This document shows positions 28,842 through 44,297 of a stretch of DNA of 64,000 bases, piece by piece. The notes under the pieces were generated by a model that did not search any database, was not told the origin of the DNA, and saw nothing but the letters and a program-made list of their open reading frames with translations. The DNA is from Desulfobaccales bacterium. GTDB taxonomy: Bacteria > Desulfobacterota > Desulfobaccia > Desulfobaccales > 0-14-0-80-60-11. Position numbers and translations under genes: made by a program. Position 1 is the stretch's first letter, and each line of letters starts with the position of its first letter. The stretch spans positions 1,892-65,891 of the forward strand of contig JBIOJX010000001.1 in the NCBI GenBank assembly GCA_044451265.1, written 5' to 3'.

Positions 28842-28851
28842 GAGATTACCT

Positions 28852-29274
28852 TTACTGGATCACGATGTCCGGTTTAATAACCAGTTCGGACTTGAAGGAC
28901 TGGTTGATGGTGGAGTACTTCATGGCCATGTCGAGGGCCCGCTGCACCATCTCTTTGGATTTGCCCTTGACTACGATCCTGGGATAAAAGGTCACCCGCT
29001 TGAACCAGGAGGTGCGGTCCAGGTGTTCTTCCACCTCACCTTCGACGTCGATTTGCAGAGATACCAGGTCCATCTTAAAGCGTTCCGCGGCCCAGACCAC
29101 CATCATGAAGTAGCAGGTATTGGCCGAGGCCACAAAGGCGTCTTCCGGAGTAAGGACACCTGCCTTTCCAAACAGGTCCGGTGGCGCCGAGAATTCCATT
29201 TCCACGCCATTTTGCATCCAGGTATACCCCAGATGCTCGCCCCGCCACTCCACTTTATTCTTATAAATTGCCAT
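28852..29274 (-). CDS. OsmC/Ohr-family thiol peroxidase-like protein
   Basis: ..LTPEDAFVASANTCYFMMVVWAAE.. and the overall OsmC pattern. Likely start MAIYKNKVEW. Confidence 0.8.
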   Translation of the reverse strand: MAIYKNKVEWRGEHLGYTWMQNGVEMEFSAPPDLFGKAGVLTPEDAFVASANTCYFMMVVWAAERFKMDLVSLQIDVEGEVEEHLDRTSWFKRVTFYPRIVVKGKSKEMVQRALDMAMKYSTINQSFKSELVIKPDIVIQ

Positions 29275-29287
29275 AGGTGCTCCTTGG

Positions 29288-29698
29288 TTATTCTTCTTCC
29301 AAAACCTCATCTACCGCCTTGGCGATTTCCGCCGCCACCGCCTTGACCGCGGCTTCTTCCTCCGGCCCGAAGTGACGCAGTTTGGTTGGGGGCTTTAAGC
29401 CGTGCTTCTGGAGAATCTCGGGGATGGAGAGCGACTTGGCAGGCTTGCCCGACAGCATCTCCGTGGCCTTAGCGGCGCAAAGCTTGTCGCAGCCGTCCAC
29501 CGTGATGGTGGGGTAGTCGGATGCAAAGGTGCGCTCTTCTTCCCCTCCTGCGATAAAAAGGGGCAGGCAGATGGTAACGGTCTCTCCGGGGCGTTCATCC
29601 AGCACTTTGCGGCAGGCCAGGCGGCACAGGGTGCCCTCGGGAATTTCTTCGCCGCTACAGGAGACCACACCCACTTTCATGACCTGGATGTCCATCAC
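29288..29698 (-). CDS. DGC-domain (putative Zn/thiol-binding) protein
   Basis: VGVVSCSGEE...TICLPLF...PTITVDGCDKLCAAK matches the CSG...C...DGCxxxC layout of PF08859-type proteins. Confidence 0.8.
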   Translation of the reverse strand: MMDIQVMKVGVVSCSGEEIPEGTLCRLACRKVLDERPGETVTICLPLFIAGGEEERTFASDYPTITVDGCDKLCAAKATEMLSGKPAKSLSIPEILQKHGLKPPTKLRHFGPEEEAAVKAVAAEIAKAVDEVLEEE

Positions 29699-30108
29699 TT
29701 CCCCTCCCCGGCGGCCAGCTCGTCCACCACTTTCGCCACTTCTTCCGCGGCCACCGCCGCCAGCTTCCGGCCGGTCTCATTCACTTCAGAGATGCCCTCG
29801 GGCTTGAGGTCTTTGTGCTCTTTGTAGAACTTGATGGCCTCGAAAGCCTGGTCCACCGCTTTGCCCAGGGCCTCGACGCTTTTTTTGGCGCAGTCCTTGG
29901 GGCAGCCGTCGATGGTGATCACCGGGTTCCCGGTGACCAGGGCCACCGCCTCGGGGTCCTTAATTACCAGGAGTGGCAGGCAGGTGGTCACCACCATGTC
30001 GGGCCGCACCCGCTCCAGCAGTTCATACATGGTCTCCCGGGCCAGGGCGCCATAGACCTTGCCGATGCCGCTGCAGGGGAGCACCACCACCTTCTTATGC
30101 TTACCCAT
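29695..30108 (-). CDS. DGC-domain (putative Zn/thiol-binding) protein
   Basis: VVVLPCSGIGK...TTCLPLL...PVITIDGCPKDCAKK. ATGA overlap with the downstream DGC paralog. Confidence 0.8.
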   Translation of the reverse strand: MGKHKKVVVLPCSGIGKVYGALARETMYELLERVRPDMVVTTCLPLLVIKDPEAVALVTGNPVITIDGCPKDCAKKSVEALGKAVDQAFEAIKFYKEHKDLKPEGISEVNETGRKLAAVAAEEVAKVVDELAAGEGK

Positions 30109-30556
30109 AAAGCTTCTTTGCCTCCCGGGCGATCTTGTCCTTCATTGCCTCGGAATATTCCTTGGCGTCCATGAGTTGGGCTTTGTCGCCTTCGGGGTCG
30201 CTGAGTGCGATGCGATAGATCCAGCCGGCGCCGTAAGGGTCGTGGTTGATCAGGTACGGGTTGGCATCCATTTCTGGATTGACCTCTGCTATTTTGCCGG
30301 AAACCGGTGAGATGATCGCGAAGGTAGCCTTGATGGTCTCGATCTTGCCGATCTCCTGGCCCCGCTTGACCTCGGCGCCCGGATCCACGGTCTCCAGGAA
30401 AGCCACGTCGCCCTTGGCCTTCTGTTGGAAATCGGTGAGTCCCACGGTGGCCACGTTCCCCTGGATATCCGCCCAGAATTCTTCCTGGCTATACAGATAG
30501 CCCTCTTTCACTTTGAAGATGAATTTCTCGTACCGATGTTCCAGAAATTCCGCCAT
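30101..30556 (-). CDS. GcvH-like lipoyl-carrier protein
   Basis: ..ATVGLTDFQQKAKGDVAFLE...GKIETIKATFAIISPVSGKIAEVN...DPYGAGWIYRI. The Lys of ETIKA aligns with the lipoyl-lysine of ESVKA in GcvH. Confidence 0.88.
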   Translation of the reverse strand: MAEFLEHRYEKFIFKVKEGYLYSQEEFWADIQGNVATVGLTDFQQKAKGDVAFLETVDPGAEVKRGQEIGKIETIKATFAIISPVSGKIAEVNPEMDANPYLINHDPYGAGWIYRIALSDPEGDKAQLMDAKEYSEAMKDKIAREAKKLYG

Positions 30557-30572
30557 AACCGGCTCCTTTCCT

Positions 30573-30911
30573 TTAGCTGAGAACAGTTTCCACTTCTTTG
30601 AGGATCTTTTTCACCTGGATGGACCCGGCGAACTTGGGTTCCCCGTCGATCACCACCAGAGGAGGAGGATACTTCTTGGTGGCTAGTAGCTGCCCAAGTT
30701 CGCTTTCTTTCTCTGCCGGATGTTCCCTAAGGTCCACATACTCCACCCCAGTCTTACCGGGATAGTTTTCTTCCAAGACGGCCTTGAGTTCGGCCACCTT
30801 TTGCTGCAACATGGCGGCATATTCCGGGGAAAGGCTGGGGTTGCTGCAGGCGCAACCACCACCGACACCCGGCAGGTCGAGGACCTTTACTTCGACAAAG
30901 TCTTTTGCCAT
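30573..30911 (-). CDS. thioredoxin-fold protein with GGGCACS motif (YuzD/ArsD-like)
   Basis: 112 aa. N-terminal CxC in a Gly-rich loop; C-terminal ..YPPPLVVIDGEPKFAGSIQVKKI resembles the ArsD/YuzD C-terminal strand. Family assignment by eye only. Confidence 0.55.
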   Translation of the reverse strand: MAKDFVEVKVLDLPGVGGGCACSNPSLSPEYAAMLQQKVAELKAVLEENYPGKTGVEYVDLREHPAEKESELGQLLATKKYPPPLVVIDGEPKFAGSIQVKKILKEVETVLS

Positions 30912-30945: not shown

Positions 30946-30961
30946 AACCGGATAAGCGATT
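30946..30961. promoter_or_regulatory. operator-like 16-mer (weak copy) AACCGGATAAGCGATT upstream of the yuzD/gcvH-like block
   Basis: Member of the AnnCGGnT-AnnCGGAT family seen at six promoters; second half-site degenerate. Confidence 0.25.
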
Positions 30962-31043
30962 ATATTTCAATAAATTATTCGCTGTCCCGCTAGGCCCATA
31001 ACATCCCGGTTAAAAGGGCTTAGATTAATAACTCTCCCGGCCG

Positions 31044-31802
31044 TCATGAACTCTTGAGGGCACGCACTTTTACGCTGAGGATCTTCCCGCGCAAACGCTC
31101 ATCCATTCCCGGCGCCTCATAGTAAGATTCATCAACTACTGCTACTTCCGTAAAGCCGGCGCGCCGGATGGTTTCCAGATAAGCCTCCTTTGCCATGGCT
31201 CCCGCCAGGCAGTCGGCCCAGGCTGCGGCGCTGGCCCGCACGTCCGGGGGCAGTTCGCCGCCCGTCACCAGATCCGCGATCAGTATGCGCCCGCCCGGCT
31301 TCAAAACCCGATGCACCTCTTTAAAACTCGCCAGTTTGTCCGGGGTCAGGTTGATCACGCAATTGCTGATGACCACATCCACGGTCGCCGAATCCACCGG
31401 GAGATGCTCAATATCGCCCTGACGGAACTCCACGTTGCCGAAGCCATGCTCCTGGGCCAGTTGCCGCCCGCGGGCCACCATGTCCTCGGTCATGTCCACG
31501 CCGATGACCCGCCCTTGCTCCCCGACTTTTTTGGCCGCTAGGAAGACGTCGATGCCGGCGCCGGAGCCCAGGTCCAAGACGGTTTCAGCCTCTTTGAGGT
31601 CCGCCAGTGCCGTAGGGTTCCCGCATCCCACGCCCAAAACGGCCAATTCTGGGACCAATTGCAGATCCTCCGCGGTATAGCCCACGGCCAGGCACTGGTC
31701 GGTGGTCGTCGGCCCGCAGGTGGGGCAACAGAAAGTCTGCTCCCCCCGGGCGATCTTGCCGTAACGGTCCTTAATAACATCCTTCAGTTTCTGATTAGCC
31801 AC
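31044..31802 (-). CDS. arsM: arsenite S-adenosylmethionine methyltransferase
   Basis: ..IKDRYGKIA...CC.TCG...VLDLGSGAGIDVFLAAKKVG..GRVIGVDMT..M...VISNCVINL..DK. GTG at 31802 preceded by AAGGAG. Confidence 0.9.
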   Translation of the reverse strand: MANQKLKDVIKDRYGKIARGEQTFCCPTCGPTTTDQCLAVGYTAEDLQLVPELAVLGVGCGNPTALADLKEAETVLDLGSGAGIDVFLAAKKVGEQGRVIGVDMTEDMVARGRQLAQEHGFGNVEFRQGDIEHLPVDSATVDVVISNCVINLTPDKLASFKEVHRVLKPGGRILIADLVTGGELPPDVRASAAAWADCLAGAMAKEAYLETIRRAGFTEVAVVDESYYEAPGMDERLRGKILSVKVRALKSS

Positions 31803-31824
31803 TCTTGCTCCTTGAATGCCGCCC

Positions 31825-32955
31825 TCACAAAATGGCATTGAAGATATAGCCGACGATGGTAATCCCCACGGCCACCACACCGATGAAGACCGCGATGAGC
31901 TTGGGCTTCAATACCTTCCGGAGGATGACTACTTCCGGGAAGGAAATGGCGATGACCGACATCATGAACGCCAGCGTCGTGCCCAGGGCCGCGCCTTTCT
32001 CCATCAGAGCCTGAACGATAGGAATAACGCCAGCTGCGTTGGAGTACCAAGGAACCCCGAAAAGAACCATTGCCGGCACCGACCACCAGGCCTTACCCAT
32101 ATATTTTGCCATCATGCCGGCGGGAATATAGCCGTGAATCGCCGCTCCGGCCCCGATCCCCAAGATGATATAGGGCCAGACCCGGCCCACGATTTCTCTT
32201 ACCTGGTGAAAGCCGTAATCGATGCGGCCCAGCCAGGTTAAGGTTTGCAGGTGGGCCGGAGCCTGCCCCATGCGGATCTCATAGACCCAGTCCTCCACCT
32301 GGCGCTCCATTCCCAGGCGCCCAATGATTATGCCGGTGGAGATGGCAATGATCAGTCCGGTGGTCATATAGAGCAGGGCGATACGCCAGCCGAACATGGC
32401 CCAAAGCAGTGCCAGGGCGATCTCATTCACCATGGGAGCCGTGATTAGAAAGGAAAAGGTGACGCCGATGGGAATGCCCGCTTCCATAAAGCCGATAAAC
32501 AGGGGCACCGCCGAACAAGAACAGAACGGCGTCACCACCCCCAGCGCCCCCGCCAGCCCATGGCCGAGGAACTCCCGTTTGCCAGCCAGGATGGTCCGGG
32601 TGCGCTCGGGGGTGAAAAAGGAGCGTATAACGCCTACGGCCCAGACGATCAGGAGCAGCAGCATGAAGACCTTGGGAATGTCCAGGAAGAAAAAGGCGAC
32701 GGATTCACCCAGGTGGGAGCCCTGGGCGATCCGGAAGGCGTCGTAGGCAATCCAACGGGAGAAGGGGTCCAGCCGGCTATAAATCGGATACCAGGCAATT
32801 AGCGCCAGGGCCAGTAAAAGCATCTTGAGGGTTTGACTGGCCGACACCGCCGCGATTGCGGCTTTCAATTTGGAAATGGGTTGTTCGGTCGTTTCAGCGG
32901 CGATTTCCATCGCCACCGCCTGCTCTTGAGGATTTTGGTTATCCATGGTTGACAT
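31825..32955 (-). CDS. arsP: ArsP-type permease (PF03773-like; organoarsenical efflux candidate)
   Basis: Multi-helix membrane protein with the TPFCSCSAVPLF vicinal-Cys motif characteristic of this permease family. Confidence 0.75.
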   Translation of the reverse strand: MSTMDNQNPQEQAVAMEIAAETTEQPISKLKAAIAAVSASQTLKMLLLALALIAWYPIYSRLDPFSRWIAYDAFRIAQGSHLGESVAFFFLDIPKVFMLLLLIVWAVGVIRSFFTPERTRTILAGKREFLGHGLAGALGVVTPFCSCSAVPLFIGFMEAGIPIGVTFSFLITAPMVNEIALALLWAMFGWRIALLYMTTGLIIAISTGIIIGRLGMERQVEDWVYEIRMGQAPAHLQTLTWLGRIDYGFHQVREIVGRVWPYIILGIGAGAAIHGYIPAGMMAKYMGKAWWSVPAMVLFGVPWYSNAAGVIPIVQALMEKGAALGTTLAFMMSVIAISFPEVVILRKVLKPKLIAVFIGVVAVGITIVGYIFNAIL

Positions 32956-32994
32956 CCCTTAAAGGAAAACAATTTTCCTAATCAAACTAATTAA

Positions 32995-33690
32995 TTACCA
33001 GGAGCGAACTCCCTGGAAAAAAAAATAACATCCGGCAAAGAAGATCAGGCCGCCGGCCGCCTTCTGGAGCATGGTACCCACCCTGGCGCTTTTAGATTGC
33101 AGGTAACTCTCGATCACTCCGGTAAAGGTGCCGGCCAGCAAGATCAGCGTCCCCTGTCCCAGAGCATAAGCGAACAGCAAAGTGCTTCCATAGGCCACCT
33201 CGCCCTTTACCGCGGCCATGGTCAGGATTACCGCCAACACCGGGGAGGCGCAGGGAGAGAGCACCAAGCCGAACAGCGCCCCTAAAATCAAGGCGCCGAT
33301 CAAGCCGGTGCGTTGGGGCAAAAATCGTTGCGCGTTGCCGCCCAGCTTCAGGTTTATGACTCCGGCCAATTGCAACCCCATGACGATGAGGATGACGCCT
33401 ACCACAAAATACCAGTAGGTCCCCACATCGCCGAACATGGTGCCCATTAGAGCCGCCATCGCCCCCAGGATGGACATGACCACGGCCAGCCCCACCACGA
33501 AGGTGAGGGAGTAGAAAAAGGCCTGTTTTTTATTGCCGCCGGCATAGCCGCCGACGAAGCCGATGACCAGGGGGATGCTGGCCAGGATACAGGGACTGGC
33601 GGTGGCGATCACCCCACCCAAATAACTGGCGCCGTAGGCCAGGACGGGACGGGTCTGCATGACCTGGCCCAAAGTTTCACTCCATGCCAT
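32995..33690 (-). CDS. ccdA: cytochrome c biogenesis/thiol-disulfide electron transporter CcdA (DsbD membrane core)
   Basis: Two conserved membrane Cys: ..TASPCILASIPLV.. and ..VLSPCASPVLAVIL.. Confidence 0.88.
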   Translation of the reverse strand: MAWSETLGQVMQTRPVLAYGASYLGGVIATASPCILASIPLVIGFVGGYAGGNKKQAFFYSLTFVVGLAVVMSILGAMAALMGTMFGDVGTYWYFVVGVILIVMGLQLAGVINLKLGGNAQRFLPQRTGLIGALILGALFGLVLSPCASPVLAVILTMAAVKGEVAYGSTLLFAYALGQGTLILLAGTFTGVIESYLQSKSARVGTMLQKAAGGLIFFAGCYFFFQGVRSW

Positions 33691-33705
33691 GAATGGTCTC
33701 CTAAG

Positions 33706-34092
33706 TTAGCGGATGAACTTCAATTCCTGCAGCTTCTTGAGGACCTCTTCTTTGGATAAGGCGCCCAAATGGCGATCCACTTCTTTGCCTTCGGGATTCA
33801 GGAACACCTGGGTGGGGATGGCTACGATCTTGTATTCCCCGAACATGGGCTTTTCCTCATCCACATAGATCATGCGAAATTCCACCTGATCGCCATGGCT
33901 GGTTTTCAAGGCCGCCATGACCTCTTTCATCTCTTTACAGGGGATGCAATACTTGGAGCCGAATTCGAAAAGCGCCGGCTTGCCTTTAGCCGCAGCCGAA
34001 CCCTGCGCCTGGGTCGGCATGGCCTGCCAGACCAGCAGAAAACCGACCACCAGGCAAAACAAACCGACCAAAGTTCCACGTAACAATTTCAT
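33706..34092 (-). CDS. exported thioredoxin (TlpA/ResA-like)
   Basis: Signal/anchor helix; ALFEFGSKYCIPCKEM (CxxC); thioredoxin-fold C-terminus. Confidence 0.85.
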   Translation of the reverse strand: MKLLRGTLVGLFCLVVGFLLVWQAMPTQAQGSAAAKGKPALFEFGSKYCIPCKEMKEVMAALKTSHGDQVEFRMIYVDEEKPMFGEYKIVAIPTQVFLNPEGKEVDRHLGALSKEEVLKKLQELKFIR

Positions 34093-34141
34093 TAGTACCC
34101 TTCCTTAGTGCAGTGATTGAAGTCAGACTCGCTGACTTAAT

Positions 34142-34157
34142 AACCGGGTATCCGGAT
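34142..34157. promoter_or_regulatory. operator-like 16-mer AACCGGGTATCCGGAT upstream of the trx-ccdA-arsP-arsM block
   Basis: Lies in the 161-nt gap upstream of the trx start (34092). Same AnnCGGnT-AnnCGGAT pattern as the arsR/acr3 promoters. Confidence 0.4.
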
Positions 34158-34253
34158 TTATAAATATTAAACCATGGCAGGAGATAAATCCGGCGCGCCT
34201 CGAATAACTTTTTTCGCCCGGACCCAAATATCTTCCCATTAGTTCCCCCAGAA

Positions 34254-35129
34254 TTACCGAGACGCCGGCGGGATCAACAGCACCGGGCACATCGCCAACC
34301 GGGAAACATTATGGGCCACGCTGCCCAGGAAAACCTCTTTGATAAAACCTTTCCCCTGAGTGCCCATGACGACGAGAGCGATGTCCTGGGTTTCCAACAC
34401 CCGCAGAATTGCCGGGAGCGGATGGCCCGGATCAAAGACCGAGTGCACCAGAGGAATATCAGCGCCGTTAAGACGCACCGTCCAGGCATTTAGGGAATCC
34501 CTGGCTTTGGCTTCCGCCATCTCCTGGTAGCCCGGCGGGTAGGCCTCTCCTCCCGGCACGTCCAGAGCGTGGAGCAGGGTAACCTCTCTCAGGCCTTTGG
34601 CCGCCAGGCGCTCCACATAATCCAAGGCCCGGAACGATATTACCGAAAAGTCCGTAGGCAAGAGCACATGACGGAGCATCTGGGTGCAGGAGATTTCACA
34701 CGAGCCCGGCTTACCAGGCATTTTTAATCGCACATTGAGCAGCAATACGGGGTATTCGGCATGATGCAACACCGCACAGGTAAAGCACCCCAGCACCCCT
34801 TCCCGCCAGAGCGATTGGCCGTGGGAGCCCAGCACGATCAGATCGGCGCCATAGCGACAGGCGATATCGTTCAAAGAATCGGCCGGCAGGCCCACCGGGG
34901 TCTCCACCGTCACTTGCAGCCCCTGGGCTTCCAGTTGCTGCTGCTGCTCCTCCAGTCTGGGCCGGGCCGCAGCCTGGAGGCTGCCTTCCATCCCCGCCAT
35001 GAACTTAATGCTAATCACATAGGTCAAGATTATCTGTTTACACCCCAGGGCTTTAAATTCTCCGGCGCAGGCCACAACTTCATCCCAGGCGGGAGACAGG
35101 TCGGTGGCCAGGACAATGCGCTCGAACAT
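34254..35129 (-). CDS. tandem-domain universal stress protein
   Basis: Two Usp repeats, each ending in G(S/T)(H/Q)G....GSVA..V / VLLI motifs. Confidence 0.85.
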   Translation of the reverse strand: MFERIVLATDLSPAWDEVVACAGEFKALGCKQIILTYVISIKFMAGMEGSLQAAARPRLEEQQQQLEAQGLQVTVETPVGLPADSLNDIACRYGADLIVLGSHGQSLWREGVLGCFTCAVLHHAEYPVLLLNVRLKMPGKPGSCEISCTQMLRHVLLPTDFSVISFRALDYVERLAAKGLREVTLLHALDVPGGEAYPPGYQEMAEAKARDSLNAWTVRLNGADIPLVHSVFDPGHPLPAILRVLETQDIALVVMGTQGKGFIKEVFLGSVAHNVSRLAMCPVLLIPPASR

Positions 35130-35172
35130 CCCTCAACTCCTTCTTGGTGAAGGTTTATCCGTCTCCTTGAGG

Positions 35173-36051
35173 TCAGCGCTGCGCCGGCGGGATCAACAGC
35201 ACCGGGCACGTCGCCAGCCGGGAGACATTATGGGCCAAGCTGCCCAGAAAAAGTTCTTGGATAAAACCTTTCCCCTGGGTGCCCATGACGATTAACGAGA
35301 TATCTTGAGATTCCAGGACCTGTAGGATGGCCGGAAGGGGATGTCCCGGGTCGAAGCGGTCATGAACTGCGGGAACGCCGCCTTTCAGCAGCCGTTGCTT
35401 CCATTGCTCCAGCAAGTCCCGGGTCGCCCCTTCGGCGATCTCCTGGTAGCCCGGCGGATAGGCCGCCTCCCCTCCAGGCACATCCAGGGCACTGAGCAGA
35501 GTTACCTGGCCTATTCCCTTGGCCGCCAAACTCTCGACAAATTCACCGGCCCGCACCCCGATTGCCGAAAAATCAGTGGGAAAGAGGACGTGGCGCAACA
35601 ATGAGCCGCAATGCAGACGGCAGGGGTCCGCTTCCTGGTCCTTTCTAACCCGCACATTAATGAGCAAGGTGGGATACCTGCTATGGTGGAGCACCGCGCA
35701 GCTGAAGCACCCCAGCACCGCCTCCCTCCAGAGAGCGGTGCCGTGGGAGCCCAACACGATCAGATCAGCGCCATAGCGACAGGCGATATCGTTCAAAGAA
35801 TAGGCCGGCAAGCCGATGGGCATCTCCACTTCTGCTTGCAATCCCTGAGCTTCCAGTTGCTGTCGCTGCGCTTCCAGCTTGGGTCGGACATCGGCCCGCA
35901 GCCTTTCTTCCAGCCCCACCAGGAATTTGGTGACGATGACGTTGGTCAAGATCACCCGGGAACACCCAAGGGCCTTAAATTCTCCGGCGCAGGCTACCAC
36001 TTCATCCAAGGCGGGTGACAGGTCGGTGGCCAGCACGATGGTCTTAAACAT
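35173..36051 (-). CDS. tandem-domain universal stress protein (paralog)
   Basis: Collinear with 34254-35129 at high identity, including at nucleotide level near the 3' ends. Confidence 0.85.
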   Translation of the reverse strand: MFKTIVLATDLSPALDEVVACAGEFKALGCSRVILTNVIVTKFLVGLEERLRADVRPKLEAQRQQLEAQGLQAEVEMPIGLPAYSLNDIACRYGADLIVLGSHGTALWREAVLGCFSCAVLHHSRYPTLLINVRVRKDQEADPCRLHCGSLLRHVLFPTDFSAIGVRAGEFVESLAAKGIGQVTLLSALDVPGGEAAYPPGYQEIAEGATRDLLEQWKQRLLKGGVPAVHDRFDPGHPLPAILQVLESQDISLIVMGTQGKGFIQELFLGSLAHNVSRLATCPVLLIPPAQR

Positions 36052-36094
36052 GAGGATACCTCTTGAATTTCATAAAATTCTTGCTCCCCTCGGA

Positions 36095-37267
36095 TTAATC
36101 AGCCTGACTGGGTGGATTTGCATGGGCGCAAGTGGGACAGACATATAAGTCTTGATCCCCGCGCCGCCCCTTCAGAAGAGTGGCTTGAGTCGCCTCGATG
36201 CCGCAATCTGCACAGCATAAGGGAGTAAAATATTTTTTCCTGAACCATAGAGCCACGCCCACCAGGCTGATCAGCACCGGCACCTCCACCAGGGGGCCGA
36301 TGACTGCGGCGAAGGCCTCGCCCGACTGGAGCCCGAAGACTGCCACGGCCACTGCGATGGCCAGTTCGAAATTATTGCTGGCGGCAGTAAACGACAGGGT
36401 GGCGGAAATGCGATAGCCCGCCCCGGCCTTGGCCGACATATAAAACGTCACAAAAAACATGATGAAGAAATAGATGGTCAGGGGAATGGCGATGCGCACC
36501 ACATCCAGAGGGAGTTGCACGATATACTCGCCCTTGAGAGAGAACATCACCGCAATGGTGAATAGCAAGGCAATGAGGGTGATGGGGCTGATCTTGGGCA
36601 TGAATTTTTCTTCATACCACTTAATCCCCTTACGTTTGACCAGGAAGAAGCGGGTGAACATGCCGCCGAAGAAGGGGATGCCCAGGTAAATCATCACGCT
36701 TTCCGCCACCTGGAGGATGGTGACCTTGACTTCCAGACCCGAGGCGACCCCCAGCCAGGCGGGTAGCACCGTGACAAAAAGATAGGCGTAGATGGAGAAG
36801 AACAGCATCTGGAAGATGGAGTTGAAGGCCACCAGCCCGGCGCAGTATTCCGTATCGCCCTGGGCCAGGTCGTTCCAGACGATGACCATGGCGATGCAGC
36901 GGGCCAGGCCGATGATGATCAGCCCCACCATGTAGTGCGGGTAGCCCTGGAGAAAGGTGATAGCCAGCAGGAACATGAGGATGGGGCCGATCACCCAATT
37001 CTGCATCAAGGATAGGAACAAGACCTTGAAGTTTTTAAAAACCTGGGGCAGTTCCTCGTAGCGCACCTTGGCCAGCGGCGGGTACATCATCAGAATCAAG
37101 CCAATGGCGATGGGAATATTGGTGGTGCCCACCTGAAAGTAGGTCAACGCCTTGGTAAAACTGGGGACCAAATACCCCAGGGCAACTCCGGTAGCCATGG
37201 TCAGGAAAATCCAGAGGGTCAAGAAGCGCTCAACGAAACCCAGGCGTTTGGCAACAGTGGCGGCCAT
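36095..37267 (-). CDS. acr3: arsenite efflux transporter, ACR3 family, with extra C-terminal Cys-rich tail
   Basis: ..[14 protein letters not shown].., ..[12 protein letters not shown].., ..[13 protein letters not shown].. ACR3 hallmarks. Last 43 aa: [10 protein letters not shown]21-CPTCAH. Confidence 0.92.
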
Positions 37268-37289
37268 ATCGAGCTCCTATCTCTTTGAT

Positions 37290-37305
37290 ATCCGTATAAC
37301 CGTTT
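37290..37305. promoter_or_regulatory. operator-like 16-mer ATCCGTATAACCGTTT (reverse complement AAACGGTTATACGGAT) upstream of acr3
   Basis: 22 nt upstream of the acr3 ATG. A TTGACT -35-like hexamer lies further upstream on the coding strand. Confidence 0.4.
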
Positions 37306-37339
37306 TATTAAGTATCATCTAGTCAAAAAAATTTAGTTT

Positions 37340-37735
37340 TCAGGCAGTTTCGGGGGGCACCTCTTGATGACCGGTGGTCGGCACCTTCGCACACTTGGAA
37401 TGCCTTTTGGCCTCCAGGCAATGTTCCAGTTGCCCCCTTAATTCCTGGGCTTCGGGTTGAGGCGCCAACATTTCCGAAAGGAGCTTGAGCAGCTTCTCCC
37501 CCGGGCTACCGGGGAGTACGGTTAGGCGGTAGTTCATCCACAGTCCGTCCCGCCGGTCCGTGACCCAACCCAGGTGATAGAGATAGCGCAGGTGCCTGGA
37601 GGCCTTGGATTGGGTGATGCCCAAGACGTTGATAACATCGCAAACACAAAGTTCTTCAGCCGCTGACAAGAGCCAGAGGATTTTCAGCCGGGTCTCGTCC
37701 GCCAGGGATTTGAAGAATCTTGCCTCTCTTTTCAT
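37340..37735 (-). CDS. arsR: ArsR-family metalloregulator
   Basis: LADETRLKILWLLSAAEELCVCDVINVLGITQSKASRHLRYL, with the ELCVCD As(III)-binding motif. Confidence 0.88.
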   Translation of the reverse strand: MKREARFFKSLADETRLKILWLLSAAEELCVCDVINVLGITQSKASRHLRYLYHLGWVTDRRDGLWMNYRLTVLPGSPGEKLLKLLSEMLAPQPEAQELRGQLEHCLEAKRHSKCAKVPTTGHQEVPPETA

Positions 37736-37748
37736 ACTATTTCTTTAT

Positions 37749-37764
37749 ATCCGGTTAACCGAAT
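37749..37764. promoter_or_regulatory. operator-like 16-mer ATCCGGTTAACCGAAT (near-palindrome) upstream of arsR (37340-37735)
   Basis: On the coding strand: TTGACT-attcggttaaccgga-TATAAA, so the motif fills the -35/-10 spacer. Confidence 0.45.
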
Positions 37765-37813
37765 AGTCAACATAAAAAATTCTATCAATCCGATTAGGTA
37801 TAAGCAATCGACT

Positions 37814-38188
37814 TCAGGAGCACTGACAGGCCGCGGCGCTCGCCTCCTTGCTTTGGCCTTTGGCTGCCAGCCACTGTTCCAAACGATCCCGCAGAGTCTC
37901 GGCTTCCGGATGGGAACTAAAAATGTCTGCCAGCAATTTTAGCTGTTTGTCCTCCGGGCTGCCGGGGGTGACACTCAGCCGATAATTCATCCACGCTCCT
38001 TCCCGACGGTCGGTGACCCAACCCAGGTGATAAAGATAACGGAGATGACGGGAAGCCTTGGACTGGGTGATCCCCAGGACTCCCATGATGTCGCAGACAC
38101 AGAGCTCTTCTTTCAACATCAGGAGCCAGAAGATCTTCAGCCGAGTTTCATCGGCCAGGGATTTAAAGAGGGCGGCTTCGTTTTTCAT
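37814..38188 (-). CDS. arsR: ArsR-family metalloregulator (paralog)
   Basis: LADETRLKIFWLLMLKEELCVCDIMGVLGITQSKASRHLRYL. Confidence 0.88.
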   Translation of the reverse strand: MKNEAALFKSLADETRLKIFWLLMLKEELCVCDIMGVLGITQSKASRHLRYLYHLGWVTDRREGAWMNYRLSVTPGSPEDKQLKLLADIFSSHPEAETLRDRLEQWLAAKGQSKEASAAACQCS

Positions 38189-38199
38189 AAATTTTTTAT

Positions 38200-38215
38200 A
38201 ACCGGATAACCGGAT
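38200..38215. promoter_or_regulatory. operator-like 16-mer AACCGGATAACCGGAT upstream of arsR (37814-38188)
   Basis: On the coding strand: TTGACA-acatccggttatccggt-TATAAA, so the motif fills the 17-nt -35/-10 spacer. Confidence 0.45.
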
Positions 38216-38378
38216 GTTGTCAACTGATTATTATATTGGTCTCTTGGGGGCAAGATTTGCTGCCGGCTTGTCTGCTGCCGCCGGTGGTTGGGCGTATTAC
38301 AGATTGAAATAGCCCCTGAAATGAACCTGGCCATTTACAGGGGCTGTCCCTCAACCGCTCAGCACTTGTGGCGTAAGG

Positions 38379-38861
38379 CTATACGGCTGTAATTGTTATC
38401 GGAGTGGCTGCCGCGATCGTATCCGAGATAGGGCATCTTAAGCGCAACTCTGCAAAGAAGCATTTTCGCTCCATCTCCGACATTGCAGAGTCAAGTGTCA
38501 CGCTGACATTAATGCCAGTGACGCCTGGTCTGCTGTCTCGGCTTTTGCCGTATAAGATATTCAAATCCAATGAACCTTCGACTGTTATATCCATGCCGTT
38601 CAAATCGAGTTTCTTCTGGTTGGCAATGATTCTGGCCGTAGTGGCAATGCAACCTGCCAATGAAGCAAACAGATACTCCATCGGGCTGGCTCCGGCGTCG
38701 GTGCCGCCGGCAAACAACGGCTGATCAACATAAAGAGTCCGCTCCCCCGCTTCTACGGCAACCTTATATTTATCATCCGTCCTCGCCTCAATGCGGAAAG
38801 TTTTTATTTTGGCCTTCGTTTCCGCGTTACTGCCTGTTGCGCAACAACCGGTGTTACTCAT
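38379..38861 (-). CDS. OsmC-family protein with N-terminal MSNTGCC tag
   Basis: ..AGGTDAGASPMEYLFASLAGCIATT.. and ..LRCPISDTI.. OsmC pattern. Start taken as ATGAGT after the GGAGG SD; the long upstream extension in the track is rejected. Confidence 0.75.
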   Translation of the reverse strand: MSNTGCCATGSNAETKAKIKTFRIEARTDDKYKVAVEAGERTLYVDQPLFAGGTDAGASPMEYLFASLAGCIATTARIIANQKKLDLNGMDITVEGSLDLNILYGKSRDSRPGVTGINVSVTLDSAMSEMERKCFFAELRLRCPISDTIAAATPITITAV

Positions 38862-38913
38862 AAGTACCTCCATCCAGGGTAGGTCTCCCTGGAATTGTCT
38901 CAGTCGGTAAGGA

Positions 38914-39417
38914 TTACAAGGTAGCCGCCACCTTCTGGGCGACGGTATGGGCAAGGGCCTGGATCTCCTCGGGCGGCATCTCCTCAATCCCGAACAGATT
39001 CCGGTCAAAGTCGTAGAGGAGGTCGGCAATGATGACTTCCGGTGCGAGGCCCTCGATCACCCCATTCATCATGCGTGACGAACAGTTGACGAAACACCCT
39101 TCCAAGGCGATCAGACGCGTGGCCTTGCGGACGAGGTTCCGTTGTCCCGTATCCTTGGTGAATGCTCCGCCGAGGCAAATCCTGACGGTCTTCTCGGGAG
39201 CCAGCGTGTGGCAAAGAATGTTAGCCGCCTGGCGGGCCACCTCGCCCCGCAGGCAGGCGCCCTCACAGCACATAACGACCACCGGCTTGGATTTTTGGCG
39301 TTCTGCATAGTCCTCGCAGAGATTGCAGCTGTTTTTTGCCTTCTCCAGGCGCACCAATTCATAATCGCCGGTTGTTCCCGCTTCGCTGCCTGTTCCGCAA
39401 CAACCTGTGTTACTCAT
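38914..39417 (-). CDS. DGC-like (EGC variant) Cys-rich protein with N-terminal MSNTGCC tag
   Basis: VVVMCCEGACLRGE...VRICLGGAF...RLIALEGCFVNCSSR follows the DGC-domain layout. Start taken as ATGAGT after the GGAGG SD. Confidence 0.65.
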   Translation of the reverse strand: MSNTGCCGTGSEAGTTGDYELVRLEKAKNSCNLCEDYAERQKSKPVVVMCCEGACLRGEVARQAANILCHTLAPEKTVRICLGGAFTKDTGQRNLVRKATRLIALEGCFVNCSSRMMNGVIEGLAPEVIIADLLYDFDRNLFGIEEMPPEEIQALAHTVAQKVAATL

Positions 39418-39495
39418 AAGTTCCTCCATCTGTGGTAGTCCTCGACATTTAATTAGATTATGCGATAGCTGATCGAAGCGCTTCGGTCTTGCATG

Positions 39496-39526
39496 TTAAG
39501 ACGGATTAGCATCAGGAAAAGTTACA
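39496..39526 (-). promoter_or_regulatory. ECF-type promoter P2: TGTAACTTT-N14-CGTCTTAA upstream of the DGC-like/OsmC-like pair
   Basis: Coding-strand sequence tgtaacttttcctgatgctaatccgtcttaac. The -35 and -10 blocks and the spacing are identical to P1 at 40446-40476. Confidence 0.55.
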
Positions 39527-39608
39527 GAACCTTGCCAGACGGGAGATAGGGCAGAGAGAGGGGAACAAGAGTATCAGGACCGGAGACTCCCCCGTTCCGG
39601 TGATAGGT

Positions 39609-40136
39609 TCACCGGCCGAGGCATTGGTGTGCTCCGTTTTGTGAATACCGCTTTTCTTCAAGGATGGCCTTGAGTTGTTTCCGGGCCCGGTGCAGCCGGA
39701 CTTTGACATTTTCCAGCGAAATACCCAGGAGATCTGCGGCCTCTTGATGACTCTCCTCTTTGATGTCACAGAGAAATACCACCTGGCGCATAGGTTCCGG
39801 CAAGAGCTTGATCAACTCCTGCACCCACAGGCTCGTTTGGTACTGTTCAATCTCCTTTTCCAAGGAGGATTCGCCCGGCAATTCTCCGGCCGGATTGTCT
39901 TCGAAGGGAATTAACTTCCGGCTGGGGCTGCGAAAATAATCCTGGCGGAGATTGGTGGCGATACGGAAAATCCAACCGGACAGTTTGGCCTGGTCCCTAA
40001 CTTTGGGAAGATTTTGCAAAACCCGGAGAAAAGTCTCCTGCACTAGGTCGTCGGCAACCCAGCGGTTCTTCACCGAGGCCAGGATGAACCTTCTGACACG
40101 GTCGTAGTGCTGCTCGTAGACCTCGTAAAAATCCAC
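39609..40136 (-). CDS. ECF-family RNA polymerase sigma factor
   Basis: Region 2 (..DLVQETFLRVLQNL..) and region 4 (..EESHQEAADLLGISLENVKVRLHRARKQL). GTG start 3 nt after the upstream stop. Confidence 0.9.
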   Translation of the reverse strand: MDFYEVYEQHYDRVRRFILASVKNRWVADDLVQETFLRVLQNLPKVRDQAKLSGWIFRIATNLRQDYFRSPSRKLIPFEDNPAGELPGESSLEKEIEQYQTSLWVQELIKLLPEPMRQVVFLCDIKEESHQEAADLLGISLENVKVRLHRARKQLKAILEEKRYSQNGAHQCLGR

Positions 40137-40139
40137 TCA

Positions 40140-40415
40140 CTAATCTCCCTCAGGCTTCTCCCAACACGGCCGCCCCGCCTCTTCCAGGGCGGCAAAGACA
40201 TCTTCTTCCTTCACCCCGATGGCTTTTCTAACGTGATTTCCCATCAACATGCTGAGGCTATTTTTGATTTTATTGGCTATCTCCATAGCCTGGAGCACCT
40301 CGTCCGGGTCCAGCCCCAGTTTTTCTGCTTGCTGGTAATAATAGTTGAAACAGGGCATGCAATTGGCGGCCATGGAGGCCCCCAAGCTCACCAGCAGTTC
40401 GGTTTTCTTGTCCAT
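40140..40415 (-). CDS. AhpD-like / carboxymuconolactone decarboxylase-family protein with CxxC
   Basis: 91 aa: ..ELLVSLGASMAANCMPCFNYYY.. (CMD-domain CxxC helix). Confidence 0.85.
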   Translation of the reverse strand: MDKKTELLVSLGASMAANCMPCFNYYYQQAEKLGLDPDEVLQAMEIANKIKNSLSMLMGNHVRKAIGVKEEDVFAALEEAGRPCWEKPEGD

Positions 40416-40445
40416 GGATTCTCTCCTTCTGGTGATAGATCAAGT

Positions 40446-40476
40446 TTAAGACGATCAAGACCATGAGAAAGTTACA
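40446..40476 (-). promoter_or_regulatory. ECF-type promoter P1: TGTAACTTT-N14-CGTCTTAA upstream of the ahpD-like/ECF sigma operon
   Basis: Coding-strand sequence tgtaactttctcatggtcttgatcgtcttaaac, about 30 nt upstream of the ahpD-like ATG. AAC...CGT with 17-nt separation fits ECF promoters. Confidence 0.55.
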
Positions 40477-40707
40477 ATAAATCTTGCTGAGAATTCCTGC
40501 AACAGGAGAAAGATAGATTAACCGAGCCTACCGGATCGGCTTAGTCTGGTAGTCTAAGGTAAAATCCTCGATTTTCTTCTAAGCTGTATTTTCACTCCTC
40601 CATTCCTGTTATGCGCAGCCAAATGGGAAAGAATTTTTTTAACCTATGTCAAAAAAAAATCTACCCCCGCGCCGGATTTGGATGATATAAGGGTTTTCTA
40701 TGATAAC

Positions 40708-40723
40708 AACCGGATACCCGGAT
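40708..40723. promoter_or_regulatory. operator-like 16-mer AACCGGATACCCGGAT upstream of the Spy/CpxP-like gene
   Basis: Starts 2 nt after a TATGAT -10-like hexamer and ends 26 nt before the ATG at 40750. Confidence 0.4.
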
Positions 40724-40749
40724 ATTCAATTTATGAACAAGGAGGCCAC

Positions 40750-41193
40750 ATGAATAAAAAATCACTGATGAAAACCTGGGTAATCATTTCCCTGCTCGCG
40801 GCTCTGGGCTTGAGTTTAGGGGCCGTGGATATCGCCTGGGCGCAGGACGGTAGGGGAGGGATGAATGCCAACCTGACCCCGGAGCAGAGCGCCCAGCTCT
40901 TTGATCTCAGGCAGCAGTTCAGGCATGACACCGCAGGACTGCGCAAGCAGATGTTGGTCAAGAGAACCGAGTTGGCGGCGTTATGGCAAAGCCCCGCACC
41001 CGACCAAAACCAGATTCAGGCCAAGCAGCAAGAAATCAATGCGTTGAGAGATCAACTCCAGGCGAAACGCACGGCTTTTCGGCTCCAGAACCAGCAAATC
41101 TGTCCGCAAGCCGGCATGGGCATGGGACGTGGCGGTGGCAGAGGCATGGCCATGGGTCAGGGTTGCGGCCAGGGCCGCGGCTGCAACTGGTAA
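40750..41193 (+). CDS. periplasmic Spy/CpxP/ZraP-family protein
   Basis: Signal peptide, LTPEQ motif, helical Q-rich repeats, Gly/Met-rich C-terminal tail with Cys. ATG at 40750 preceded by AAGGAGG. Confidence 0.75.
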   Translation: MNKKSLMKTWVIISLLAALGLSLGAVDIAWAQDGRGGMNANLTPEQSAQLFDLRQQFRHDTAGLRKQMLVKRTELAALWQSPAPDQNQIQAKQQEINALRDQLQAKRTAFRLQNQQICPQAGMGMGRGGGRGMAMGQGCGQGRGCNW

Positions 41194-41242
41194 GGTTAAA
41201 CAGGGGAAAGGTGGCCGCCCCCTTCTCCTTTCCCCTGCCCCA

Positions 41243-41273
41243 CCTTCTCCCAACCGGCTGGGTTGGGAGAAGG
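41243..41273 (+). terminator. 13-bp perfect stem-loop after the Spy-like gene (no canonical U tract)
   Basis: ccttctcccaacc-ggctg-ggttgggagaagg; preceded by a second hairpin, GGGGAAAGG...CCTTTCCCC. Confidence 0.4.
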
Positions 41274-41392
41274 TTAAAGGGGTGACTTTAGCCGCCGGTT
41301 AACTGATCAAAGATTATGCCGCAGCCTCGGCCACCACGATCAAATAGTTATGGAACTTTTATTACGAGAGAGGCGTGAAAGGGATAAAGGAG

Positions 41393-42088
41393 ATGAAAAG
41401 GATAAAATTTGTGGGAACCTTGCTGGTGTTAACGGCCATGGTCATGTTGCCAATCTCCTTGGCGCCAAGCTGGGCCTTGGGCAAGACGGGTAGCCGGCAA
41501 CGTGCCTGTAACTTGGTAACTTCAGACAACCCCTCATTGGCCAAAAACGAATCAGAGGTGAGGATATTAAGCATCCTTGATGACATAGGGGAGGGGCCCT
41601 GCACGGAGGAACTGCACGGAAGATTGCTATGGATCCTGGCCGAGTCCACCAAGGCCATGAATGTCGTGGAGATCGGCACCGGGAACGGCTACTCGGCTCT
41701 CTGGCTGTGCCTGGGCCTTAAGAACACGGGAGGCAAGCTGGTTACGCATGAAATAGACCACAAACAGGTTTTGTTGGCCAGAGCGAACTTCAAACGGGCC
41801 GGGGTAGAGAACCTGGTTACGGTGGTTGAGGGCGATGCCCACGATACGGTCGGCCAACTGAAGGAGCCCATCGATATACTCTTTATGGATGCGGAGGGGG
41901 GTAACCTGGATTATCTCAACCAGCTTCTGCCCATGGTTCGCCCCGGTGGATTAATCCTGGCAGATAACGTGAGCAAGCCCAACCCCGACCCCCAGTTCAT
42001 CAAGGCCATCACCAACAACCCGAACCTGGAGACGATCTTTTTGAACATGCAGTCCACTGGCCTCAGTGTGACGATCAAAAAACCCTGA
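41393..42088 (+). CDS. class I SAM-dependent O-methyltransferase (family 3) with N-terminal signal-like helix
   Basis: VVEIGTGNGYSALWL (motif I), ..ILFMDAEGG.., ..RPGGLILADN. ATG at 41393 preceded by AAAGGAG. Confidence 0.85.
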   Translation: MKRIKFVGTLLVLTAMVMLPISLAPSWALGKTGSRQRACNLVTSDNPSLAKNESEVRILSILDDIGEGPCTEELHGRLLWILAESTKAMNVVEIGTGNGYSALWLCLGLKNTGGKLVTHEIDHKQVLLARANFKRAGVENLVTVVEGDAHDTVGQLKEPIDILFMDAEGGNLDYLNQLLPMVRPGGLILADNVSKPNPDPQFIKAITNNPNLETIFLNMQSTGLSVTIKKP

Positions 42089-42112
42089 AGCCCCATCCAT
42101 ACGAAGGAGATT

Positions 42113-43441
42113 GTGGTGGAGGGAGTTCCAAAGAAAGAACTTTCACTGTTTGACTCAACCTGCATTATTGTGGGGATCATTATCGGCGCCGGCATTTATG
42201 AAACTGCCCCGATAGTGGCCAAATGCTTGGGAAGTGGGCCTGGCCTGATGCTTGTCTGGCTGACAGGAGGGCTCCTGGCGTTGACGGGCGCCCTGTGCTA
42301 TGCGGAGCTGGCCACCGCCTATCCCCGGGAAGGCGGCGACTACGTTTACCTGACCCGCGCCTATGGCCGCTGGCCGGGCTATATGTTCGGTTGGTCCCAG
42401 TTGGCCATTGTCAGGCCTGGGGATATCGCCCTGATGGCCTTCATCTTTGCCCGATATGCCCAGACACTGTATGCCCCATTTGAACATAGTGGCCTGTTCT
42501 ATGCCGCATCGGCCATCGTGGTGCTGACCATCATCAACATCCTGGGCGTCAAGGCGGGGAAATGGACGCAAAACCTGCTCACCATCACCAAGATCCTGGG
42601 ACTGGTGGGCATCAGTGTAGTCGGCCTAACGGCCCCTCTTGCGGCGCCCCTGCCCCCCGCATCTGGGAGCTTTACTTGGGAAGGGCTGCAACTGGCCTTT
42701 ATCTTGGTGTTTTTCACCTTTGGTGGCTGGAACGAAATGGCTTATGTGGCCGCCGAGGTCAAGCGGCCACACCCAAATATCGTCCGTGCCTTGGTGGCGG
42801 GGACCATAGCGGTAACCGTCCTCTATCTACTGATCAATGGCGCTTTCCTCTCCGCTCTGGGGCTATCGGGCTTGTCTTCCTCCCCAGCTGTGGCCGTTGA
42901 GATGATGGGGAAGGTTTTTCCGCAGGCTGCCGGCCGGGTCATCGCTATCCTCATTTGCATATCGGCCCTGGGGGCGGTTAATGGCCTGGTCTTTACCGGG
43001 GCGCGTATTTCCTATGCCCTGGGTGTCGACCATAAATCCTTCCGTCCTTTGGGCAGATGGAGCCCGAGTCTCGGCACACCGGTGTGGGCCCTGGTAGTTC
43101 AAGGGGTCTTGAGCCTGGCCATCGTCCTGACAGCCGGCTCTTTTTTAGATACCATCCTTTACACCGCTCCCGTGGTTTGGTTATTCTTTCTCGCTACCGG
43201 ATTGTCGGTTTTCGTTCTCCGGCACAAGGAACCAGGCATACTGCGCCCTTATAAGGTACTGGCCTATCCCCTGGTCCCCCTGCTCTTTTCTGGCTGCTGC
43301 CTTTTTATGCTATTCAGTTCCTCTTCATACGCCCTACTCAAGAAACCCATAGGTCTGCTTTTCCTGTCGGCAGTAATCCTGTTGGGGGTGATAGTTTACT
43401 GGTTCAGCGCTGGGTGGGAACATAGGAGATCAGAGAGTTAG
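42113..43441 (+). CDS. APC-superfamily amino acid/polyamine permease
   Basis: 442 aa, about 12 hydrophobic helices; N-terminal ..IVGIIIGAGIYETAP.. motif and ..FTFGGWNEMAYVAAEVK.. Confidence 0.88.
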   Translation: MVEGVPKKELSLFDSTCIIVGIIIGAGIYETAPIVAKCLGSGPGLMLVWLTGGLLALTGALCYAELATAYPREGGDYVYLTRAYGRWPGYMFGWSQLAIVRPGDIALMAFIFARYAQTLYAPFEHSGLFYAASAIVVLTIINILGVKAGKWTQNLLTITKILGLVGISVVGLTAPLAAPLPPASGSFTWEGLQLAFILVFFTFGGWNEMAYVAAEVKRPHPNIVRALVAGTIAVTVLYLLINGAFLSALGLSGLSSSPAVAVEMMGKVFPQAAGRVIAILICISALGAVNGLVFTGARISYALGVDHKSFRPLGRWSPSLGTPVWALVVQGVLSLAIVLTAGSFLDTILYTAPVVWLFFLATGLSVFVLRHKEPGILRPYKVLAYPLVPLLFSGCCLFMLFSSSSYALLKKPIGLLFLSAVILLGVIVYWFSAGWEHRRSES

Positions 43442-43598
43442 CCATTCACTTGAGATTTCCCGCGGCTCGACGCGGTTGAGGCAAGGTGCCAGGAAATGGA
43501 GCAAGAAAATGTAGCATCCAAAAAAGTTGACTTAACAACCGCCGATTTCTTTTTTTTACGCTGTTGTATATGCATGAAACCGATTATCCGCTTTTGAG

Positions 43599-44296: not shown

Positions 44297-44297
44297 C

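Follow-up and report, generated by a model that had tools for sequence, protein, structure and literature searches.

A 16-bp Paired CCGG Box as Candidate Operator of Two ArsR Paralogues in a Desulfobaccales Arsenic and Thiol Gene Island

A 16-bp box that recurs at the promoters of an arsenic and thiol gene island in the Desulfobaccales is very probably the operator of two ArsR paralogues encoded there, ArsRa and ArsRb, which would be autoregulated, be released by As(III) and control a regulon of several operons. The box was studied in a stretch of 64,000 nt from one Desulfobaccales genome (contig JBIOJX010000001.1), referred to as the window throughout this paper and used as the coordinate system, and its frequency was assessed within these 64 kb and in related loci. 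The assignment draws on the motif itself, its enrichment, its placement in promoters, its conservation and the identity of its target genes, all of which were observed. A common repressor site for these two paralogues, both of which carry an ELCVCD motif, had been proposed in a preliminary description of the same DNA, and the proposal is supported by comparative genomics, namely by the position of the box, by its targets and by the identity of residues 37-63 in the two proteins.

The Box and Its Frequency in the Window

The five copies of ANNCGGNTANNCGGAT first described were all recovered as exact matches in a pattern scan of the window (34142, 38200 and 40708 on the forward strand, 37290 and 37749 on the reverse strand), against 0.02 expected, and none of 100 shuffles of the window gave five such matches. 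Each 8-mer is a near-palindrome centred on CCGG, which gives the better form AWCCGGWT-AWCCGGWT. When this form (AWCCGGWTAWCCGGWT) was scanned with up to two mismatches, seven sites were found, at 30946, 34142, 37290, 37749, 38200, 40708 and 43578, against 0.24 expected and a maximum of one in 100 first-order Markov resamplings; the weaker copy reported earlier at 30946 is among them, with two mismatches. All seven boxes are confined to promoter regions between 30.9 and 43.6 kb, and no further promoter in the 64-kb window carries a box at this threshold. The sole site added at three mismatches, 28859, precedes no operon start. An Rfam scan of the window returned one tRNA only and no RNA element at the boxes.

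Two look-alikes had also been mentioned. The one at 43577-43592 is genuine and is conserved in seven relatives. The one at 41288-41302 has at least five mismatches by eye, was matched neither in a scan of up to four mismatches nor in the scan of the relatives at up to two, and is most likely a chance resemblance.

The consensus of the box is A-W-n-C-G-k-T-T-A-W-C-C-G-G-T-T, which can be idealised as AWCCGGWT written twice. In the idealised form, 12 of the 16 positions are self-complementary, the exceptions being the four W, and the site has approximate two-fold symmetry, with the CCGG cores at 2.5-5.5 bp on each side of the central T/A dyad and the core centres 8 bp apart. Since CCGG is itself self-complementary, the 16-bp site can also be read as a tandem direct repeat.

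Promoter Anatomy

The promoters of the two arsR genes were read by eye and from conservation; a promoter scan missed them, since their TATAAA ends in A and the scan accepts only a -10 hexamer with T in the sixth place. In the gene direction, the arsRb promoter reads TTGACA-AC-ATCCGGTTATCCGGT-TATAAA-AAATTT-ATG. TTGACA occupies 38223-38218, two nucleotides and box positions 1-15 make up a 17-nt spacer, and TATAAA follows at 38200-38195, its first T being the final T of the box. The ATG (38188) lies 6 nt past the -10 hexamer and is not preceded by a ribosome-binding site, and the arsRb mRNA is therefore predicted to be leaderless; judged by their promoters, both arsR mRNAs probably are. At arsRa, the box is a palindrome with one mismatch and directly abuts TTGACT; the spacer to TATAAA is 15 nt in the window and 16 nt in most relatives, and the ATG (37735) lies 13 nt downstream of the box. 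The earlier statement that the motif exactly fills both arsR spacers thus holds to within 0-2 nt but not to the letter, arsRb having two extra nucleotides and a last T shared with the -10 hexamer.

The other boxes are placed differently. The acr3 box lies immediately 5' of the ribosome-binding site TAGGAG, and the box of the lipoyl operon is overlapped at its 5' end by TATAAT (30964-30959). The trx box (box 4) has a TAATAT -10-like element and a GCGCCGGATTT element (34196-34186) ahead of it, and the same GCGCCGGATTT element stands upstream of the box of the Spy-like gene at 40669-40679 (+). At these two promoters and at the 43578 site, a -10-like TWATAT is found 6 nt before the box and a conserved GCGCCGGWTTT 28 nt upstream of it. 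If TWATAT is read as the -10 hexamer, the transcription start would fall under the box; a second candidate -10 hexamer, TATTAA or TATTCA, is present at trx and the Spy-like gene and has the last T of the box as its first base.

The constant presence of the box in core-promoter DNA, abutting a -10-like hexamer, is what an element recognized by RNA polymerase or by an alternative sigma factor would also display, and a short dispersed repeat is a related idea. Either origin of the motif is scarcely credible. The position of the box relative to the promoter elements varies by class, lying in the spacer, past TWATAT or, at acr3, 22 nt before the start, so that the box behaves as an independent module; likeness between copies ends at 16 bp, and the other promoters of the window are free of it. 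Alignments made for each promoter class likewise have their maximum of conservation on the box and the promoter hexamers, with the similarity among copies stopping at 16 bp. A specific candidate of this kind, recognition of the box by an extracytoplasmic-function (ECF) sigma factor, was considered and rejected: spacing and sequence do not fit, and the sigma factor gene is rarely linked (5-6 of 79 related loci) and never carries a box itself.

Two further features of these promoters were noticed. Copies of GCGCCGGWTTT occur at 40669-40679 (+), at 34196-34186 (-), in a degenerate form at about 43538-43549, and in many related loci, and in the trx, Spy-like and secreted-protein promoters the -10-like TWATAT lies 16 nt past it. 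Of 71 occurrences of the 10-nt core GCGCCGGWTT, 30 have a box at a distance of 26-29 nt, counted from the core. The element contains CCGGWT and, by its sequence, could be an auxiliary ArsR half-site, the site of another factor or an unusual -35 region. On the opposite strand, box 6 also fills the spacer of a promoter-like TTGAAT-18-TATCAT (window 40700-40729, -), which faces a CMD/ECF-sigma/DGC/OsmC operon 285 nt away, and divergent co-repression of that operon through box 6 is possible.

Conservation in Related Loci

Homologues of ArsRb with 80-93% identity are abundant in metagenomes, and the named ones belong to Desulfobaccales, Syntrophobacterales or Deltaproteobacteria. The related set consisted of 79 loci (1.18 Mb), mostly from Desulfobaccales-like metagenome-assembled genomes, with a few from Acidobacteriota and Anaeromyxobacteraceae. 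At up to two mismatches, these loci contain 198 boxes against 1.8 expected. None of the 198 falls within a gene labelled by tblastn, and 171 of them are followed within 350 nt by a homologue of some island gene.

The box stands at a near-fixed position ahead of the arsR orthologues in about 70 related loci. Measured from the end of the box to the start of the gene, the distance is 11-15 nt, mostly 12, for ArsRb (66 sites), 14 nt for ArsRa, 22 nt in most of the 53 sites of Acr3, about 50 nt for Trx (16 sites), 19-28 nt for the Spy-like gene (17 sites) and 41-45 nt for DUF1462 (4 sites). A position 11-15 nt before arsR in nearly every orthologue is the classic signature of autoregulation. As a guard against ascertainment bias, 68 unique arsRb-type promoters were anchored on TTGAC alone, and the resulting matrix (in percent) was A94 W n C85 G94 k T87 T90 A97 W C75 C96 G97 G87 T88 T96. 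The location in the -35/-10 spacer, found for both arsR genes of the window, is thus conserved in these 68 promoters, and loci that score no box at up to two mismatches still hold a degenerate copy at the same position. More distant homologues, 48-54% identical, have the arrangement TTGACAAT-ATTCGTTAAACCGGAT-ATACAA in Acidobacteriota, and the Anaeromyxobacteraceae homologue has a tandem version of three to four units; the arsR genes of both groups have a normal Shine-Dalgarno leader.

Within the related loci, the box (up to two mismatches) is a property of first genes. It precedes 69% of ArsRb, 69% of ArsRa, 45% of Acr3, 35% of Trx and 33% of DUF1462 genes, and all 11 Spy-like orthologues (11/11, 100%). 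It was found at 0% before the internal genes for CcdA, ArsM, ArsP, GcvH, DGC and UspA1, and equally at 0% before the ECF sigma factor gene, the CMD gene, the radical-SAM gene at 47505 and ArsRc, the third ArsR. Every arsR gene that carries a box encodes the helix TQSKASRHL; genes of the ArsRc type have none, their best match showing eight mismatches.

It might be argued that another factor, a regulator from outside the island or one responding to thiol or sulfide stress, binds the box and that its link to arsR is mere co-regulation. Such a factor would suit a regulon rich in thiol and redox functions (Trx, CcdA, rhodanese, OsmC, Lpd, GcvH), and the box does not resemble known ArsR operators. 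We consider this very unlikely, in view of the retention of the box 11-15 nt before arsR even in 48-54% identical homologues, in other phyla and in differing neighbourhoods. Consistent linkage to another regulator gene was not seen, the gene of the ECF sigma factor being present in 5-6 of the 79 loci and never boxed.

Two targets deserve separate mention. The lipoyl operon is kept as a unit with the same gene order in 11 related loci, and a box occupies the equivalent place in 9 of 13 orthologous operons, typically as TTGATAT-box-ATAAT; the link of this operon is the weaker because only 9 of the 13 have it. The site orthologous to 43578 in seven relatives lies about 26 nt 5' of a gene for a secreted protein of about 150 aa that belongs to no Pfam family. 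This gene is missing from the window while box 7 is kept, and the remnant of an ABC-ATPase gene takes its place, a sign that the DNA here was locally deleted or rearranged.

In some relatives, three to four tandem 8-mers are present (L010:9578, L022:863, L028:8476, L005:2351, L078:84-115). In the four Desulfobaccales-type loci among these, they precede a gene for a lipoprotein of 71-72 aa that is absent from the window. The loci L022 and L028 have a GAPDH-like gene between the lipoprotein gene and arsRb.

The ArsR Paralogues

Both paralogues have the winged helix-turn-helix domain of the family, with matches to HTH_5 in Pfam (E=9e-12 for ArsRb and E=1.5e-12 for ArsRa). Their relatives in the PDB are CadC, SmtB, HlyU and ArsR, and CadC (1u2w) is the nearest solved structure (E=1.8e-14). 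The ELCVCD motif is present in both, aligns with ELCVCD of E. coli ArsR and is conserved in the orthologues, which gives each protein the CVC metalloid site; ArsRb and E. coli ArsR share 53% identity in the DNA-binding domain, and their CVC motifs align. An exact-sequence look-up of the ArsRb protein gave no record. The overall identity of ArsRa and ArsRb is 71%, and in the stretch of identical residues, 37-63, the recognition helix is included, so that one operator can serve both.

The C-terminal cysteines are paralogue-specific and conserved. ArsRb (end, 37814-37840) has ...AACxCS in 48 of 73 orthologues, and ArsRa (about 37370-37420) has C-x8-C with at least two tail cysteines in 21 of 25. 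Methylarsenite-selective ArsR variants that use C-terminal cysteine pairs have been described, and the cysteine motifs seen here may be extra metalloid ligands or the basis of differing effector specificity. A refinement compatible with the operator assignment is that ArsRa and ArsRb share the operator and sense different signals, for example inorganic As(III) in one case and methylarsenite or Sb(III) in the other, or a metalloid and thiol oxidation; we regard it as a tentative possibility. Identical recognition helices joined to different conserved cysteine patterns would fit such a division of labour, as would a regulon that holds ArsM and ArsP, the handlers of methylated arsenicals. The canonical CVC site is, however, kept in both paralogues, and many relatives retain the promoter and box of arsRa but only short remnants of the gene, which argues that the gene is dispensable.

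The extent of this decay can be described as follows. In many relatives, arsRa is cut to a 5' remnant of about 10-45 codons, and since promoter and box are kept, two tandem boxes precede acr3 (about 10400-10600 in L009, L011, L016, L023, L025-L027, L029, L036, L045 and L048). By this pattern, arsRa looks recurrently dispensable.

The third ArsR (ArsRc, 46505) is 38% identical and has a different recognition helix. The two ATATAATTTT repeats that had been reported beside it were found in the divergent region 46435-46491, between a DGC-domain gene (45984-46430) and arsRc; the copies, at 46435 and 46482, are 47 bp apart, against 0.08 expected. This pair probably represents a separate operator, that of ArsRc.

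Proposed Mechanism

Binding of ArsR, repression and the nature of the inducer are predictions made from sequence, and the following scheme is proposed. In the absence of metalloid, an ArsR dimer would sit on the box, where each CCGG core could face one recognition helix, and would exclude RNA polymerase at the spacer, the -10 hexamer or the start site. The spacer arrangement, with the last T of the box serving as the first T of the -10 hexamer, would apply to arsRb, to arsRa and, in relatives, to the lipoyl operon; at trx, the Spy-like gene and the 43578 relic, the repressor would lie just past TWATAT, over the likely transcription start; at acr3, it would lie directly before the ribosome-binding site. 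Binding of As(III) or Sb(III) to Cys30 and Cys32 of ELCVCD would free the repressor, and seven promoters would be derepressed jointly: those of both arsR genes, of acr3-usp-usp, of trx-ccdA-arsP-arsM, of the operon with the lipoyl, DGC, OsmC and Lpd genes, of the Spy-like gene, and the relic promoter. The range of zero to two mismatches among the boxes would allow graded repression, and ArsRa and ArsRb would cross-regulate, given their identical DNA-reading residues.

Several points weigh against this scheme. The box matches neither the SmtB/ArsR 12-2-12 consensus nor the E. coli/R773 operator. The promoters of trx, the Spy-like gene and acr3 can each be read in two ways. The boxes at 30946 and 43578 are weak, with two mismatches each, and the latter is without its ancestral target gene. 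The tandem arrays of three to four 8-mers would not be predicted by a simple model of one dimer on one palindrome. Every related locus was gathered through ArsR itself. Finally, when sequence space as a whole is considered, the exact 16-mer lacks specificity. In a reverse scan of metagenomes with exact ATCCGGWTAWCCGGTT, the matches listed comprised 121 sites on 120 contigs, of which 2 of the 121 adjoin an ArsRb gene; a rough estimate of the size of the database predicts some 10^3 matches by chance, and the listed sample is thus dominated by chance. The open-frame coverage of these matches did not separate coding from intergenic positions in this G+C-rich DNA.

Comparison with Known ArsR Operators

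That the motif differs from the classical ArsR operators had been stated in the preliminary description and was borne out when promoters of E. coli K-12 and R64 were compared directly (the R64 ArsR is identical to the R773 query sequence). The K-12 ars promoter (...ATTCGTTAAGTCATATATGTTTTTGACTTATCCG...) and the R64 ars promoter (...ATTAATCATATGCGTTTTTGGTTATATGTTGTTTGACTT...) contain no CCGG pair and have in common TTAA(G)TCATAT..GTTTTTG, upstream of and overlapping the -35 hexamer. Conversely, the classical patterns TCAT-N7-TTTG and TGAA-N6-TTCA occur in the window at chance level and in coding DNA only. Given this mismatch with characterised operators, specificity is not transferable from any characterised relative, and a member of the ArsR/SmtB family would here be reading an operator sequence of a different kind.

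Compared with the ArsR-Pars systems of E. coli, R773 and R64, the island has the same regulator family, the same ELCVCD sensor and, as predicted here, an autoregulated arsR heading an efflux locus and repression by promoter occupancy. The operator of those systems lies upstream of and overlaps the -35 hexamer, whereas the AWCCGGWT pair of the island lies in the spacer or over the -10 hexamer or start; one box type is found at seven promoters rather than at one, and the island arsR mRNAs are probably leaderless. Within the region that chromosomal ArsR protects in E. coli, the left half is ATTCGTTAAGTCATAT (L080:254-269, K-12 Pars). The first nine bases of this sequence are the same as those of the Acidobacteriota box ATTCGTTAAACCGGAT (L074, L076, L077). 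The overlap may be a coincidence, the R64/R773-type promoter being without the stretch.

The 12-2-12 sites of SmtB, CzrA and CadC resemble the box in being roughly two-fold symmetric, in overlapping the core promoter and, as predicted for the island, in being bound by a winged-helix dimer. Their TGAA/TTCA half-sites are about 10 bp apart, whereas the CCGG half-sites of the island are centred 8 bp apart, and the island site can in addition be read as a tandem direct repeat that has three to four units in some relatives. A precedent for paired paralogues is offered by the 'bifan' of ArsR1 and ArsR2 in Pseudomonas putida KT2440, in which the operators overlap the -10 hexamer and experiments demonstrated that the paralogues repress each other's promoters (PMC7994332). 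The island also has two co-resident paralogues, and its identical helices and near-identical boxes lead one to expect cross-regulation. In P. putida, the paralogues head two arsRBC operons and have non-identical operators of the SmtB/ArsR consensus (PMC7994332), while the arsR genes of the island are adjacent single-gene units whose shared box reaches accessory operons.

Six 12-mer variants of the box retrieved no relevant paper from the searchable literature, which did not cover RegPrecise and Kazakov et al. 2013, and gave only unrelated matches to eukaryotic and viral primers. Papers on ArsR operators in the same literature contained no matching motif. In-silico ArsR-family regulons of the Desulfovibrionales are said to be included in RegPrecise and in Kazakov et al. 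2013 (J Bacteriol 195:29), reportedly obtained by phylogenetic footprinting of a family regulator's site and regulon among related sulfate reducers, the same type of inference as is made here.

Genes Downstream of the Boxes

Gene identities were assigned by Pfam and are collected with the boxes in Table 1. The earlier gene assignments were upheld: two HTH_5 ArsR proteins with ELCVCD, Acr3, the series Trx, DsbD_TM, ArsP and methyltransferase, a Metal_resist protein, and DUF1462-GcvH-DGC-DGC. The genes directly 3' of boxes include those for Acr3 (SBF), ArsP_1 and the ArsM-like methyltransferase, as is typical of an ars regulon. The lipoyl block runs on past the limits first given for it and adjoins arsM, the added part (25299-29310) extending from OsmC through Thioredoxin_3. 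The order of the operon is DUF1462, GcvH-like protein, DGC, DGC, OsmC, dihydrolipoamide-dehydrogenase-like flavoprotein, radical SAM protein, lipoate-protein ligase and Thioredoxin_3, and its gene content suggests that the OsmC-to-Thioredoxin_3 genes and the lipoyl block form a self-contained lipoyl-protein redox system.

Table 1. Boxes and associated genes in the 64,000-nt window.
Feature	Position	Strand	Mismatches	Description
Box 1	38200-38215	-	0	ATCCGGTTATCCGGTT in gene direction; arsRb promoter spacer
Box 2	37749-37764	-	1	Near-palindrome ATTCGGTTAACCGGAT; arsRa promoter, between TTGACT and TATAAA
Box 3	37290-37305	-	2	AAACGGTTATACGGAT; ends 22 nt before acr3 start 37267
Box 4	34142-34157	-	1	49 nt 5' of trx start 34092
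Box 5	30946-30961	-	2	AATCGCTTATCCGGTT in gene direction; 34 nt 5' of DUF1462 start 30911
Box 6	40708-40723	+	1	26 nt 5' of Spy-like (Metal_resist) gene start 40750
Box 7	43578-43593	+	2	AACCGATTATCCGCTT; now ahead of ABC-ATPase remnant, then rhodanese-MauE pair
arsRb	37814-38188	-		ArsR/SmtB repressor, ELCVCD (Cys30/Cys32), C-terminal ...AACQCS
arsRa	37340-37735	-		ArsRb paralogue, 71% identical; identical helix-turn-helix/recognition helix; C-x8-C in C-terminal region
acr3-usp-usp operon	34254-37267	-		Arsenite efflux permease (SBF) and two tandem-Usp proteins
trx-ccdA-arsP-arsM operon	31044-34092	-		Exported thioredoxin, membrane thiol-electron transporter (DsbD_TM), ArsP permease (ArsP_1), S-adenosylmethionine methyltransferase (ArsM-like)
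Nine-gene lipoyl/thiol operon	25299-30911	-		Tightly packed
Spy/CpxP-like Metal_resist gene	40750-41193	+		Identified by Pfam
Spy-like gene, O-methyltransferase and amino-acid permease	40750-43441	+		Same strand; co-transcription only possible
Rhodanese-MauE pair	43784-44801	+		3' of box 7; control by box uncertain
ABC-ATPase remnant	43599-43727			42-codon open reading frame matching residues 185-224 of MJ0796/LolD-type ABC ATPases

At a distance from the boxes, a tRNA gene (5605-5677) is directly followed by a tyrosine-recombinase gene of the phage integrase family (5700-6941), and the G+C content falls from about 0.63 to 0.51. An integrated element may have its boundary at this spot, which lies upstream of the arsenic island.

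Significance

The proposed mechanism is that of a standard ArsR switch, and the view of the ArsR family is left unchanged; what would be new is the operator sequence and the regulon of a known kind of regulator. A bolder reading, which we advance only hesitantly, is that the box marks accessory modules as a form of arsenic defence not described before, run by two ArsR paralogues that sense different ligands. The modules in question are the lipoyl-protein redox operon, the exported Trx-CcdA pathway and the Spy/CpxP-like envelope protein and, in relatives, the uncharacterised secreted protein of about 150 aa and a 71-aa lipoprotein. If this were true, they might protect or replace arsenite-sensitive dithiols.

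The box would in any case place genes otherwise without a functional lead in an arsenic context, including those for DGC-domain proteins, DUF1462, the lipoyl-protein system, the Spy-like protein and secreted proteins without a Pfam family. The compact TTGACA-box-TATAAA promoter with its perfect 16-bp operator might also find use as a small component of arsenic biosensors. The analysis provides an operator and a regulon that can be tested for an abundant uncultured ArsR clade, one that is frequent in metagenomes from sediment and groundwater.

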